From the NCBI GenBank assembly GCA_945872815.1, contig CAMCAY010000002.1, positions 22,519-86,518 of the forward strand: 64,000 bases of DNA, in the 5' to 3' direction. Shown piece by piece: positions 40,201 to 60,975 of this stretch. The stretch's first letter is position 1. Each line of letters starts with the position of its first letter. This stretch comes from Chitinophaga pinensis (GTDB lineage: Bacteria; Bacteroidota; Bacteroidia; Chitinophagales; Chitinophagaceae). The position numbers and the translations under genes were made by a program. A model generated the notes under the pieces. That model was given only the letters and a program-made list of their open reading frames with translations, had not been told where the DNA came from and ran no database searches.

Positions 40201-40641
40201 GTTGAGAAATTTGTTTTTACCAGATTTGAACCTGCGGGAATGGTAGAACATCCAAATATCAAAACAACCACCTCTATAATAGATTTCATGTTCCGTTCAT
40301 TGGCTTATGAATATTTAGGAAGAACAGACCTTGTTCATGTTTTAGATAAGCCTGCAATAGAAAACCTTGGAAATGAAGATTGGGATGATTCTACCCCAAC
40401 TATCGGAGAAAGAAAGCCAGAGTTAAGCGATGTAAGGGTTTTGGGAAATAATGGAGATGGGACAAAATCTCACAGAGAAGTAAGTCCTACAAAAGCGACT
40501 TCTTCATTAGATGCCATCAATGCTGCTAATAAATCCATGCAAGGAGATGCTCCTGCTTGTAATACATGTGGTCATATAACAGTTAGAAGCGGCACTTGCT
40601 ATAAATGTTTAAACTGCGGCAACAGCTTGGGTTGCAGCTAA
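37297..40641 (+). CDS. nrdJ: Class II (adenosylcobalamin-dependent) ribonucleotide reductase
   Basis: PNSPQWFNTG, PQPHACFI, GTTRRAAKM, NPCSEY (thiyl Cys), ACNLAS, IAPTGTI, SGAISKTIN, ALYRDGSK, C-terminal CxxC..CxxC. ATG 37297 preferred over TTG 37219. Confidence 0.95.
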   Translation: MPAKKQPAKALSFQRQFTKEGISPFDMFEYDYRTSVIKNPSGEVVFQMDNVEVPKGWSQIATDILAQKYFRKAGVPQPDGSLGRETTSKQVAHRMAHCWRVWGERNDYFASEKDAQIFYDELVYSILNQACVPNSPQWFNTGLHEVYGITGKPQGHYYVDAKDGKLKKSTSAYERPQPHACFILSVDDDLVNEGGIMDLWVREARIFKYGSGVGTNFSSIRGDGEKLSGGGTSSGLMSFLKIGDRAAGAIKSGGTTRRAAKMVCLDLDHPEIVEFVNWKLKEEDKVAALIAAGYSSDYEGEAYRTVSGQNSNNSVRIPNSFFKVLDDNGDWELKARGDGSTMRSVKAKDLWDQINYAAWRCADPGTQYDTTINEWHTCPEGGPIRASNPCSEYMFLDNTACNLASVNLRRFFNEDNNTFDVEGFEHTCRLWTVVLEISVLMAQFPSKEVAQLSYDYRTLGLGYANLGSMLMVSGIAYDSEQARGIAGAITAIMTGISYKTSAEMASFLGAFDRYKENKKHMLRVMHNHRAAAYDAIEAYEGLEIKPHGINAKYCPDYLLKAATKAWDDAVQMGEKFGYRNAQTTVIAPTGTIGLVMDCDTTGVEPDFALVKFKKLSGGGYFKIINQSVPQALRNLKYTEKEIEDIVNFAKGHATLKGAPYINDETLAAKGFQPAEIERLNAAMGSAFEIGFVFNVFTLGEACLQRLGFTPDQYNDFGWSLLEALGFTDDEIDAANIYVCGTMTVEGAPHLKEEHLSVFDCANKCGATGQRYIHAHGHIRMMSAAQPFLSGAISKTINLPNEATIEEIADSYRLSWELGLKACALYRDGSKLSQPLSNKSDKKKKTSDESAMESLLNESGLVDMGKLTIDELLEEMNKRVQSSADTSLKRQLAMIVERRSLPAKRRGFTQKAKINGQALFLRTGEYNDGTLGEIFIDMAKEGATMRSMLNCFAIAVSIGLQYGVPLEEYVEKFVFTRFEPAGMVEHPNIKTTTSIIDFMFRSLAYEYLGRTDLVHVLDKPAIENLGNEDWDDSTPTIGERKPELSDVRVLGNNGDGTKSHREVSPTKATSSLDAINAANKSMQGDAPACNTCGHITVRSGTCYKCLNCGNSLGCS

Positions 40642-40670
40642 AAATAGTGTTTGATTAATTGCAGAACACG

Positions 40671-40702
40671 ACCATCGGGGTAAAAGCCGGTGGTTTTTTT
40701 TT
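40671..40702 (+). terminator. Intrinsic terminator of nrdJ
   Basis: Stem ACCATCGG/CCGGTGGT (one G-U pair) followed by a T run. Confidence 0.75.
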
Positions 40703-40734
40703 GTGCTAACCGAAGATTTGTAATTTTTTATTAT

Positions 40735-40754
40735 CCCACCATTTAAATGGTGGG
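40735..40754. repeat. REP-like perfect palindrome just past the 3' end of the Y1 transposase
   Basis: CCCACCATTTAAATGGTGGG, preceded by TTTATTAT and followed by CT; 9 nt from the tnpA stop. Confidence 0.85.
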
Positions 40755-40763
40755 CTTCTCAAT

Positions 40764-41165
40764 TTAAAATTTTATACCCTCTTCCTCTAAACTTTCGTAT
40801 TTTACTTTTTGTTTTTTGATGTATTCATCAACAGATTCTACTGCAAAATCACTTACTGAAAACGCAGCATAGCCTTTTTGCCATGCAAATTTTTCAAAAA
40901 TAAAATTGTGTTCATTGATGTAATGAGAAGAAGATCCTTTTATTTGTTTCATCACTTCAGCATAAGATTTTTTTGCATCCAGCATGAATAAGCAATGAAT
41001 ATGATCAGAAAGTCCATTTACAATTTTCAATTTGCAGCCTAATAGCCTGAATTCATCATATAAAAAGGGATAAAGATGTTATTCTAGATCAAGTGTGATA
41101 ATTGGTTGTCGATCTTTTGTTGCAAATACAGCATGAATCCAAACGTTATAAAATGAATTTGACAT
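40764..41165 (-). pseudogene. tnpA: IS200/IS605-type (RAYT-like) Y1 HUH transposase with an in-frame nonsense codon
   Basis: ATG 41165 MSNSFYNVWIHAVFATKDRQPIITLDLE*HLYPFL continues in frame into the tracked ORF (DHIH HUH motif, IKGSSS, FAWQKGYAAFSVS, YIKKQ). TAA at 41079-41081. Confidence 0.88.
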
Positions 41166-41266
41166 AGTAATGTAATATACATCTAGTAAAAATCTGTAAG
41201 AGGGTAAAAAACCAAATATTCAATGTTTTAATACGGATTAAATTAGATAAAATTCCCAGAATAATG

Positions 41267-41294
41267 TTAGCCCACCATTTAAATGGTGGGCTAA
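41267..41294. repeat. REP-like 28-bp perfect palindrome upstream of the Y1 transposase
   Basis: TTAGCCCACCATTTAAATGGTGGGCTAA; its core is identical to 40735-40754. Confidence 0.85.
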
Positions 41295-41337
41295 GGATTT
41301 TACATCTCGATTTTTACATTTTACCTTTCTAATTTTC

Positions 41338-58466: not shown

Positions 58467-58636
58467 AAGTCAAAATTCATAAGTAAAAATTCAAAACTAA
58501 AAAAGAATAGCGCCGATCCGCGACCGGTGAAAAAAAAAGAAAAAGGACTTTGTCCTTCTATTAGCATTTTTGAAAAAAAATTTAATTATTACAAATTCTT
58601 TATTATCCCACGGTTTAAACAGTGGGCTAGAAAAAC
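58467..58636 (+). repeat. Left ~170-bp composite direct repeat (DR-L)
   Basis: About 88% identical to 60807-60975 by hand alignment (64/66 over the last 66 nt). Contains a heptad tract, TAGCGCCGATCCGCGACCGGTG, AGGACTTTGTCCT and ATCCCACGGTTTAAACAGTGGGCTAG. Confidence 0.92.
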
Positions 58637-58713: not shown

Positions 58714-60624
58714 CTAATCCTTTATCAACCGAACAGAAAACCCTACTACTTTATTGAAGTTAAACCTGTGTATATCTAAACTTGTGCTACTAAGATAACG
58801 ATACCATGCAAAGGATGCATTGCTTTCAGTAGAACTCCACCAATACCCAAAATTTCCAACATTACTAAAGTAACCACTACTGAATCTACGGCCGCCGGGA
58901 AGTGCACCAAAACCACTGCTGTTAGTAGCTCCTGTATTGGGACTATTCCAATTTGTTGTTGATTTTAACATCCCTCCAACAGTAGTGTTCTGCCAGCCAC
59001 TTAACGTAGTGTCTGCACTTGGTTCTAAAAATTTTACTATTTTATTCCATTCACCATCTGTGGGAACATGCCATCCTATTGGAGCCAATCCCCTGGGATC
59101 ATTTACTGCAAACCAGTTATATAGTTTTCCATATTGCCAGTAATTCGCACTGTCATTGTTATACCAGCACCACGCACCGGTTGTAAGGTTTGCCCATTGA
59201 ATGGTATCAGTAACTTGAGGAATAGGATCTCCATTGCGATATGTTGATACATCGAGATTTTTATTGTCCCAAATTTGTGAGCCGATGGTGATTTGTGTTG
59301 GAAGAATTGTATCAACAGGACAAGGCCCCCAATGTGGCAAACCATTACACAAGGTAAGTGTTTGCCCATTAGTACCTGGACTAACGGTTACCCATACACT
59401 ATCTTTCCAGTACAACATTTGTCCATTAATAGTACCATTTTGAAAGCCATTGCCCGGAGGACCTTGCACACCTTGCAACCCCTGCGGGCCGGCAACACCA
59501 CTGTCTCCTTTATCTCCCTTCTCTCCTTTTGGGCCATTGGCTGCATACATCGCATAAGGCACACTCATCAGCTGTTGCGTACCAAGATCTACATATCCAT
59601 TACCCAAATCCATCTGCACCTGTAAAAACTTATTGGTATTAGCCCAATTGATAGATGCAAATGTGCCTTGTGTAGCTGTGCCTTTTCCTAAAACAGTATT
59701 GATTAATCCATGACCGTTGGTAGTGAGTGCATGTACTTCCTGATATTCCACACCACCCAATGCAGAATCTTTATGCAACGTAAACTGCGCTGTTACATTG
59801 GCGTTAGTCATAATCTGCCCCGATGCATTTCTAATTACCGCCTGATACGGAATGCCCGGTGGTACTGGCTTTGATATAGTATCTGTGTTGGGATTGTTTG
59901 TTGTTTGACCTGTGTATAATGCAGTGATTTCATCTTGAGTGAGGGCGCGGTTGTAGATAGCTATGTCATCAATTTTTCCAGAAAACCAGCAGTTATATGT
60001 TCCTGCTCCACCTCTTCTTCCAAATCTAAGAGGTATTGAACTTGTCCCTATATTTCCCATTAAACTTATTGAATCTAATTTAATACCATCAAGATAATAT
60101 CTTACAATATTTCCGTTAAATGTTGCTGTTACATTGTACCATTTATTTGCAATGTTTCCTGCAGATCCTAAATGAAAGTTGTCACCGATATTACCTATAT
60201 GAAAAATTCTTCCAGAATTTCCTCCAAGATAAATTTCATATCCACCATACCATGCTCCATCAACAATTTTTGAAATTATTGCATGTTCATCAATTGGAGA
60301 ATTAAAACTCCATAAATCAGAATTGAACCACGCAGAAATTGTATAAGCACTTGAAACAGTAATATTTGAAGAAGATTGGACTTCAATATAATTGCTATTC
60401 CCATTAAATAGATAAGATTTCCCAATGTTTCCAAACCTATCACTTGTCAAAGTTGCACCGTAAACTATTCCATTATTCCCATTCCCACTTTCATCATTCG
60501 CATTGCCATTAAAAGGCCACCATCCCACCAAGCCATTCGTTGGAACATAAGATGGAATATTGTTTTGTGCGAAAATTTGAATCGAACTAAATAAACAAAA
60601 AAGGAATAAACAAAGCTTGTTCAT
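58714..60624 (-). CDS. Secreted mosaic protein: LamG/ConA-like + YQAVIRN domain + collagen-like GXY + FISUMP (Fib_succ_major) domain
   Basis: Signal peptide; GLVGWWPFNGNANDESGNGN and GKIDDIAIYNRAL (LamG); about 10 GXY triplets; IGSQIWDNKNL, YGKLYNWFAV, GWHVPTDGEW, GYWWSSTE, GFSVRLIKD (FISUMP). Confidence 0.85.
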   Translation of the reverse strand: MNKLCLFLFCLFSSIQIFAQNNIPSYVPTNGLVGWWPFNGNANDESGNGNNGIVYGATLTSDRFGNIGKSYLFNGNSNYIEVQSSSNITVSSAYTISAWFNSDLWSFNSPIDEHAIISKIVDGAWYGGYEIYLGGNSGRIFHIGNIGDNFHLGSAGNIANKWYNVTATFNGNIVRYYLDGIKLDSISLMGNIGTSSIPLRFGRRGGAGTYNCWFSGKIDDIAIYNRALTQDEITALYTGQTTNNPNTDTISKPVPPGIPYQAVIRNASGQIMTNANVTAQFTLHKDSALGGVEYQEVHALTTNGHGLINTVLGKGTATQGTFASINWANTNKFLQVQMDLGNGYVDLGTQQLMSVPYAMYAANGPKGEKGDKGDSGVAGPQGLQGVQGPPGNGFQNGTINGQMLYWKDSVWVTVSPGTNGQTLTLCNGLPHWGPCPVDTILPTQITIGSQIWDNKNLDVSTYRNGDPIPQVTDTIQWANLTTGAWCWYNNDSANYWQYGKLYNWFAVNDPRGLAPIGWHVPTDGEWNKIVKFLEPSADTTLSGWQNTTVGGMLKSTTNWNSPNTGATNSSGFGALPGGRRFSSGYFSNVGNFGYWWSSTESNASFAWYRYLSSTSLDIHRFNFNKVVGFSVRLIKD

Positions 60625-60681
60625 GTTTTGGCAATTGATATATAGCAAGATAATGATATTTTGTAAATTTTAATGCAAACC

Positions 60682-60733
60682 AGGACAAAGTCCCGGCAAC
60701 TTTAATTGAATCACCGGTCACAGACCGGCGCTA
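60682..60733 (-). repeat. Inverted partial copy of the composite repeat
   Basis: AGGACAAAGTCCC (12/13 to the reverse complement of 60883-60895) and TCACCGGTCACAGACCGGCGCTA (22/23 to the reverse complement of 60848-60870). Confidence 0.88.
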
Positions 60734-60806
60734 ATTGAAAAGTAAAAAGGAAAAAGTTAAAATTAAAACCTTAAACCAGCGCAGCGAATTGAACCAACAA
60801 AGTAAA

Positions 60807-60975
60807 AAGTAAAAATTTAAAAGTCAAAAATCAAAACTAAAACACTCTAGCGCCGGTCTGCGACCGGTGATAAAAAAGAAAAAGGACTTTGTCCTACCAA
60901 TTTCATTTTTGAAAAACAATTTAATTATTACAAATTCTTTATTATCCCACGGTTTAAACCGTGGGCTAGAAAAAC
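60807..60975 (+). repeat. Right ~170-bp composite direct repeat (DR-R)
   Basis: Copy of 58467-58636 with perfect palindrome CCCACGGTTTAAACCGTGGG at 60946-60965; abuts the ileS promoter. Confidence 0.92.

Follow-up and report, generated by a model that had tools for sequence, protein, structure and literature searches.

The window analysed here is a 64,000-nt stretch of the Chitinophaga pinensis assembly GCA_945872815.1 (2.42 Mb in 96 contigs, 34% G+C, ~8% of the genome intergenic); this assembly is referred to as G000, and the other G numbers designate the related genomes compared with it. Between the ribonucleotide reductase gene nrdJ, which ends at 40641, and glyS, the minus strand carries a Y1/HUH transposase-like gene of the TnpA-Y1 subclass 1.2 type (tnpA, 133 codons, 40764..41165), whose product matches Pfam Y1_Tnp with 85.7 bits (3e-24). 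This gene is bracketed by two copies of a hairpin-forming palindrome, and the association between gene and hairpins is the subject of this work. The left limit of the inserted unit is the intrinsic terminator of nrdJ, i.e. a stem plus a T-run detected by a terminator scan (40670..40702, plus strand), which stands outside the repeat family and is conserved in relatives whether or not they have the tnpA unit.

The reading frame of tnpA contains no frameshift, and its HUH (DHIH), W (AWQKGY) and tyrosine (YIKKQ) motifs are intact. Its sole lesion is a premature TAA at codon 29 (41079..41081, minus strand). This codon is Glu in every orthologue and intact relative compared, and a protein search retrieved a 97%-identical protein, with Glu at codon 29, on a 1,090-bp ENA metagenome contig; this contig shares the locus and both palindromes with the window, and its frame is open. 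When metagenome contigs were scanned twice for exact patterns spanning the stop codon, no match was obtained. Thus the nonsense break is probably recent, strain-specific or an assembly error. The original prediction had described the gene as dead: the in-frame TAA is indeed present, but only one codon is affected, and the metagenome contig shows an almost identical allele to be intact.

An intact paralogue, which the same prediction had proposed to look for, exists as well. The only other Y1 gene of the genome (G000:C9:30154-30615; 153 aa, motif YILNQEEHH) is intact and 36% identical to tnpA; it adjoins a tandem array with a period of ~100 bp (G000:C9:29780-30615 for the whole). The array holds seven ACCCC-NNN-GGGGT (CCCCGNAGGGG) hairpins found nowhere else in the genome; all copies being local, we rejected them as a second genome-wide family.

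Palindromes of the window

A pattern search located CCCACNNTTTAAANNGTGGG four times in the window, at 40735, 41271, 58607 and 60946, for a mean chance expectation of 0.01; none of 100 dinucleotide shuffles gave four copies. The two copies beside tnpA are identical and both read CCCACCATTTAAATGGTGGG, and their sequences and positions are as originally predicted. Copy 1 (40735..40754, no strand assigned) lies 9 nt past the tnpA stop codon and reads AAG-hairpin-ATAA on the sense strand of tnpA. Copy 2 (41267..41294, core 41271-41290, no strand assigned) is a perfect 28-nt palindrome, TTAGCCCACCATTTAAATGGTGGGCTAA, separated by 105 nt from the tnpA start and by 60 nt from glyS, and upstream of both. 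In single-stranded form the palindromes fold into hairpins (8-bp stem, 4-nt loop) with energies between -8 and -16.5 kcal/mol, the value varying with the extent to which flanking bases prolong the stem (-8 kcal/mol, z = -4.4, for copy 1; -12.8 kcal/mol for copy 2).

The two distant copies are also as first described, that at 60946 being a GG/CC stem variant and that at 58607 having one broken pair (GG/CA). The copies at 40735, 58607 and 60946 are preceded by TTTATTAT, the copy at 41271 having AATGTTAG instead, and CT directly follows all four. These shared flanks had been noticed in the original prediction; they are real, but they are the reverse complement of the polar signature of the family, given below.

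Hairpins of the same family in the genome

A palindrome-constrained search of the genome returned 24 copies versus 0 for the reversed control, and a looser search with a 16-mer core returned 30 matches versus 2. Twenty-seven are clear members of the family, all of them intergenic (27/27). The genome-wide count suggested by the original prediction thus amounts to ~27 dispersed extragenic copies away from any tnpA copy, so that the motif is not found only beside tnpA as the ends of an insertion sequence (IS). The stem occurs as CA/TG, GG/CC, GA/TC, CT/AG and CCCAT/ATGGG variants. Over 28 aligned copies 87% of the cells pair and 32 are changed on both sides, which none of 500 shuffles matches; the compensatory arm changes are C-G to T-A, G-C to C-G and G-C to A-T. 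The compensatory stem changes, claimed at first from the window copies, thus hold for the whole family.

Most copies lie at gene 3' ends: 15/27 follow a facing stop codon by at most 40 nt, versus 6.3 +/- 2.2 for random intergenic placement (P ~0.0005). Three copies lie between divergent genes. The copies are mostly singlets, with three close pairs beyond the gene flanks, and A/T runs are found beside many of them. Copies whose loop is asymmetric can be given a direction: read with TTTA in the loop, they have TAG immediately 5' and, often, ATAA on the 3' side.

We compared 16 hairpin sites with the orthologous regions of G052, G015, G050, G076 and G044. At G000:C13:16807, C1:125591, C1:32138 and C43:7761 the flanking genes could be aligned and the palindrome is present in G000 only. 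That of C43:7761 is a clean insertion of ~31 nt, i.e. the hairpin and a few flanking bases, in an AT-rich spacer and with no trace of IS sequence. At G000:C2:87930 (palindrome region 87912-87967, just past the end of the window) a perfect 36-nt hairpin centred on CCCACGATTTAAATCGTGGG lies between two convergent genes; exactly at this position G015, G050 and G044 carry unrelated ordinary terminators, composed of a stem plus a T-run.

History of the gene at the nrdJ-glyS locus

A close orthologue of tnpA was found in 6 of the 60 other genomes of the genus sampled. Four are intact and at the same nrdJ-glyS place: G052 (78% identity), G015 (76%), G053 (68%) and G050 (65%). In G004 an intact gene (53%) lies at another locus, flanked by two copies of CCCACGGTTTAAACCGTGGG which are the sole copies in that genome, and in G058 the gene (45%) is broken by three stop codons. 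Empty sites are seen in G042, G061 and G074, where the reductase gene and glyS are adjacent with the terminator alone between them; the spacers of these empty sites are too diverged for the insertion boundaries to be fixed exactly. Pairwise ratios of nonsynonymous to synonymous substitution rates (dN/dS) among orthologues range from 0.07 to 0.21, with dS from 0.6 up to saturation. The gene is thus old, vertically inherited and under purifying selection in the sister species. Each genome has one copy of the window lineage, and among the genomes examined none carries near-identical copies, intragenomic paralogues being ~36% identical.

The palindromes beside the gene differ between sister loci: they are of the GG/CC type in G052, of the type CCACCG...CGGTGG in G053 and G050, and imperfect hybrids in G015. 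Local palindrome arrays are found upstream of glyS in G050 and G076. In the latter (G076:C152) the reductase-tnpA arrangement is lost and a small array of CCCACGGTTGAAACCGTGGG hairpins is kept.

With a relaxed pattern, counts over 61 genomes of the genus were 16 for G000, 25 for G050, 25 for G076, 15 for G052, 6 for G053, 5 for G015, 2 for G004 and 2 for G044; all the others gave 0-3, mostly non-palindromic chance matches. Counts above 3 are thus limited to G000, G050, G052, G053, G015 and G076, all of the subclade with the nrdJ-glyS tnpA locus.

Homologous genes are often flanked by hairpins of their own

In related genomes too, homologues of the gene each have a 20-nt hairpin stem of their own on both sides. 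The cognate hairpin is present in 2 copies in each of G029, G037 and G079, in 5 in G012, 9 in Algoriphagus zhangzhouensis, 15 in Salinimicrobium sediminilitoris and 18 in G028; the stems are confined to the gene flanks in the first three genomes and dispersed in the other four.

A search with a 4-sequence alignment on contigs from one genome per species provided 80 homologous loci, in which we looked for strict hairpins (8-bp stem, 4-nt loop, G+C-rich, <=300 nt upstream or <=200 nt downstream of the gene). Such a hairpin lies near the gene in 53/80 loci. The same arm is present on both sides of the gene in 14 of the 72 loci with full flanks, versus 1.8, with a maximum of 6, when partners are permuted. 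Oriented by their loop, the hairpins have TTTA or TTCA in 131/133 cases, and the three bases 5' of the stem are mostly T (127), T (115) and G (119) over these 133. Counted per distinct stem, this tag is TTG in 32/50 and TAG, as in the window family, in 6/50, i.e. T[TA]G in 38/50; it appears on the other strand in 2/97. The paper library that we searched gave no description of a repeat partnership for subclass 1.2 or of a T[TA]G-tagged class.

Relative to the gene, the flanking hairpins of the 80 loci occur in all four combinations of orientation, which speaks against fixed IS ends. We therefore dropped the view, drawn from G029, G012 and G050, that they are always mutually inverted. Nine strict hairpins fall inside the coordinates of Y1 genes among the 80 loci; they could be in-gene insertions or an artefact of the coordinates.

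Placement of the protein and comparison with known systems

Among solved structures the nearest to the window protein are the IS200-type TnpAs 2EC2, 2F4F, ISDra2 and IS608 (E 1e-6 to 2e-3); in the same search the E. coli TnpA-REP gave no match at E <= 1. The tyrosine motif is YIKKQKVKY, i.e. of the Y...Q form; the relatives are all Y---Q, and the Y---NP of class 2 is absent. In the tree that the original prediction had called for, 42/42 sequences including the window clade stand apart from three solved IS200 TnpAs on a 100/99 branch, the rooting within the ingroup being unsure. The records of the sequence relatives bear the names Ferruginibacter or Chitinophagaceae.

Subclass 1.2 of TnpA-Y1 is characterised by the motifs DH[IV]H, WQ and YIKNQKEHH and a median length of 148 aa (PMC6006769, Table 1). 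It is present at 1.7 copies per genome with 36% identity in Cyanobacteria and Bacteroidetes, and is scored "REP: no" for repetitive extragenic palindromes (REPs) (Quentin, Siguier, Chandler and Fichant 2018, PMC6006769). The window protein shares with it DH[IV]H, WQ and Y-I-K-x-Q-K, a Bacteroidota host, a copy number that is not IS-like and a low identity (two copies at 36% here, ~1.7 at ~36% in the survey). Disparities nevertheless appear. The HH motif is replaced in the window clade, by KY here and by KH, TR and KI in the sisters, while Y...Q..HH is kept in the C9 paralogue, in the G004 protein, which is the nearest outlier, and in every other homologue recovered; moreover the window lineage ends early, after ...SLEEEG, so that ~20-30 aa of C-terminal tail are gone. 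The window gene is also bracketed by cognate, genome-dispersed hairpins, in contrast to the "REP: no" of the survey. The "IS200 Group 3" of Bertels et al. 2017, which has no duplicates and abundant flanking 16-mers (PMC5581495), may be the same group as subclass 1.2.

The systems with which the unit was further compared are the E. coli TnpA-REP REPtron (PDB 4ER8; PMC3479197, PMC8266576) and the REPINs with REP-associated tyrosine transposases (RAYTs) of Pseudomonas (PMC3116915). As in these, a single-copy, vertically inherited Y1 gene has extragenic palindromes of its own, both at its flanks and scattered elsewhere in the genome, a short conserved 5' tag stands at the hairpin foot, and mosaics with other repeat modules are formed as in bacterial interspersed mosaic elements (BIMEs). 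As a class of DNA the palindromes are REP-like, i.e. repetitive, extragenic and palindromic with compensatory stems, in modest number (27): tens of copies rather than hundreds. The tag is T[TA]G (TAG here, (A)TTG in most homologous loci) and not the GT[AG]G of canonical REPs, and, with three close pairs besides the gene flanks, the copies are mostly singlets rather than the inverted doublets of REPINs. The protein lies outside the classical RAYT/TnpA-REP family (class 2), since it scores only 31 bits of the 80 required by NCBIfam NF047646 and has Y...Q rather than Y...NP. As judged from its sequence, it is most probably subclass 1.2-like, of a short lineage without the HH motif, and not a classical RAYT. 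Of the "Bacteroidota RAYT-REP system" put forward originally, the REP-like palindromes tied to a Y1 gene stand; the RAYT does not.

The palindromes also resemble Rfam RF01687 (Acido-Lenti-1), an abundant "sRNA" motif whose function is not known, in having a stem of 8 bp that opens with CC, a loop of 4 nt and CUAA on the 3' side. The window palindromes (41267-41298 and 40735-40765) reach 21.5-24.4 bits, below the gathering score of 37, and the second half of the model is missing from them. A scan of the window at gathering scores found no Rfam family, and RF01687 did not match the hairpins of 20 homologous loci. We retained a resemblance only and rejected identity with Acido-Lenti-1.

Mosaic repeats at 58.5-61 kb

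The two distant palindromes of the window had been taken as REPs marking a cassette. They are not free-standing: each is the last module of a mosaic repeat of ~170 bp, present three times in the genome, as the two window copies and at G000:C17:32096-32331. The left copy (58467..58636, plus strand), which contains the palindrome 58607-58626 (CCCACGGTTTAAACAGTGGG, one broken pair), is 88% identical to the right copy (60807..60975, plus strand), which contains the palindrome 60946-60965 (CCCACGGTTTAAACCGTGGG) and abuts the promoter region of ileS. The order of the modules is heptamer repeats, a GCGCCGGTC...GACCGGTG hairpin, GGACTTTGTCC, an A/T-rich stretch and the palindrome. The gene between the two copies (58714-60648, minus strand) encodes a 644-aa secreted protein; we take it to begin with a LamG-like part, to continue with a brief collagen-like stretch of G-X-Y and to end in a paralogous domain of the Fibrobacter type. 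Both this gene and the ileS-proximal palindrome are missing from G052, where ~120 nt separate the araC-like gene from ileS, and from G076, G050 and G015, whose spacers before ileS are different. A BIME-like mosaic that includes the palindrome thus stands at both ends of a lineage-specific insertion.

Other modules occur in these intergenic regions. The GCGCCGGTC-NNN-GACCGGTG(A) hairpins, sometimes inverted, form a second family (58509-58530, 60709-60730 and 60850-60871 in the window) and are a separate module of intergenic mosaics, with further copies on C12, C17, C18, C24, C31 and C36; GGACTTTGTCC/GGACAAAGTCC often adjoins them. Tandem heptamers of the AAAGTAA/GTAAAAA type fill many intergenic regions and often abut palindromes (60735-60850 in the window); further arrays are found at G000:C7:61731-61785, C22:14952-15010, C28:766-845 and C31:22264-22371, and a related array of the GGTTCAA type at G000:C17:32000-32140 and C18:22340-22370.

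Interpretation of the locus

REPs and RAYTs are the classic example of a transposase that has been domesticated and looks after a population of short hairpins in the genome; to our knowledge these partnerships are known almost only from Proteobacteria, with class 2 enzymes. We interpret the present locus as a REPtron-like unit, a domesticated gene for an IS200-related transposase of single-stranded DNA bracketed by its cognate DNA hairpins, and give this reading a probability of about 0.7. The system would work like REP/RAYT, with a protein that is not of the RAYT family. The reading is built on observations: the anatomy of the unit, the dispersal and covariation of the hairpins, vertical inheritance and purifying selection of the gene, the polymorphic insertions, and the linkage of hairpins to the gene in many homologues. 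Signs of domestication are the single copy per genome, the shared locus, the dN/dS of 0.07-0.21 and the unfixed orientation of the flanks.

Several results nevertheless weigh against it. The protein scores as IS200/IS605 (NCBIfam NF033573, 65.6 bits, above the cut-off of 55) and not as RAYT (REP_Tyr_transpos, NF047646, 31.4 bits, under the cut-off of 80). No strict hairpin lies near the gene in 27/80 homologous loci. G076 has its 25 copies without a detectable orthologue and G044 also lacks the gene; both belong to the same subclade by glyS identity (91%), and hairpins without the gene fit a loss of the gene after hairpin spread. With G076 devoid of the gene and G000 carrying a broken one, copy number does not track an intact gene, and the correlation across the genus, being essentially that of one subclade, is not independent evidence. 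Copy numbers are low (2-28, versus hundreds for classical REPs), and several genomes have just the two gene-flanking copies, which also fits plain IS ends.

We therefore considered an ordinary autonomous IS200-type IS of very low activity, with the palindromes as its ends and the solo copies as decayed remnants or miniatures like palindrome-associated (PATE) or miniature inverted-repeat (MITE) transposable elements. The likeness to IS200 (subclass 1.1; Salmonella IS200, IS608, ISDra2) is clear: both have the Y1_Tnp fold and lack tnpB, and both are small units of ~0.6 kb with hairpins close to their two ends. The score above the IS200/IS605 cut-off, the IS200-type TnpAs as nearest solved structures, the ~560-bp hairpin-gene-hairpin unit at a different locus in G004, the two flanking hairpins alone in G004, G029, G037 and G079, and the broken copies in G000 and G058 all go in this direction. 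But IS of this subclass have on average 4.8 copies at 99% identity (PMC6006769), while no genome examined here has two near-identical copies, and the gene, which is under purifying selection, keeps one chromosomal locus in five species or more. In the W motif WQ stands in place of W[TS] (PMC6006769, Table 1). The palindromes are perfect and of variable orientation, all four arrangements being found, whereas those of IS200 are imperfect, subterminal and of fixed left-end/right-end polarity. Finally, the solo insertion at G000:C43:7761 is only ~31 nt long and contains no IS sequence. Such an IS is thus an unlikely description of the locus.

The palindromes could also be host terminators, or host-selected hairpins made alike by selection or gene conversion, with the Y1 gene merely lying between them or inserting beside them. 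They do have features of intrinsic terminators: enrichment directly behind stop codons (15/27), replacement of an ordinary terminator at G000:C2:87930, A/T runs beside many copies, and copy 2 flagged by the terminator scan (41294-41267). No terminator is expected, however, between divergent genes, where three copies are found, nor between the oppositely directed starts of tnpA and glyS, where copy 2 lies; nrdJ already has a terminator of its own immediately ahead of the copy at 40735, which is thus not needed for this gene. Each homologue, moreover, has a different cognate stem on both its sides, found nowhere else in four genomes, and termination requires neither the conserved TTYA loop nor the one-sided T[TA]G tag. 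Host hairpins independent of the gene therefore appear quite improbable. As for double-stranded sites of a dimeric host protein (a regulator or a nucleoid protein) unrelated to the Y1 gene, the perfect two-fold symmetry and the position of some copies upstream of glyS and ileS would suit them, but they are hardly credible with arms that change compensatorily and leave no fixed half-site, with most copies at gene 3' ends, with glyS devoid of palindrome in G042, G061 and G074, and with an ileS-proximal copy that is absent in G052, G076, G050 and G015 and thus is not a conserved ileS control element.

For the REPtron-like unit, the following course can be proposed. In the hairpins, laid out as a 5' TAG tag, an 8-bp stem, a TWAA loop, the return stem and ATAA, the enzyme would find its substrate: by analogy with TnpA-IS608 and the E. 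coli TnpA-REP, we infer that it acts on them, binding the hairpin in single-stranded DNA, e.g. at replication forks. The HUH/Tyr site would cut at the foot of the hairpin, and the enzyme would copy or move units of ~30 nt into AT-rich intergenic DNA. Many of these would land, or be retained, right behind stop codons, where they may serve as bidirectional terminators or as 3'-end stabilisers; that the hairpins terminate transcription is what we infer from the gene-end features described above. If the TAA of tnpA is real, the set of ~27 hairpins would be frozen in the genome of the window.

Implications for the family

Beyond this locus, we consider it on balance probable that subclass 1.2 is a large group of domesticated Y1 enzymes with partner repeats, the third such lineage, represented across Bacteroidota and, by some members, in Acidobacteriota and other phyla, that its partners are a new polar REP-like class, and that in the small-genome Chitinophagaceae these have spread as ~30-nt singlets and been recruited as gene-end terminators. 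The layout of the class may be a 5' (A)T[TA]G tag, an 8-bp stem usually starting with CC, a TTYA loop, the return stem and ATAA, distinct from the GTAG- and CGTC-tagged classes.

The partnership of a domesticated transposase with genomic hairpins would thereby be extended to an IS200-like subgroup that had explicitly been scored as free of repeats, with a different recognition tag (T[TA]G) and a different loop (TTYA), both of which can be tested directly with oligonucleotides. For the annotation of genomes, pipelines label these genes "IS200/IS605 family transposase" or "RayT", and neither label would be apt. The filled and empty sites, together with the replaced terminator, link the spread of the hairpins to the function of gene ends. 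Lastly, near-identical strains with an intact or a nonsense allele of tnpA offer a natural experiment, which may tell whether the turnover of hairpins stops once the enzyme is lost.

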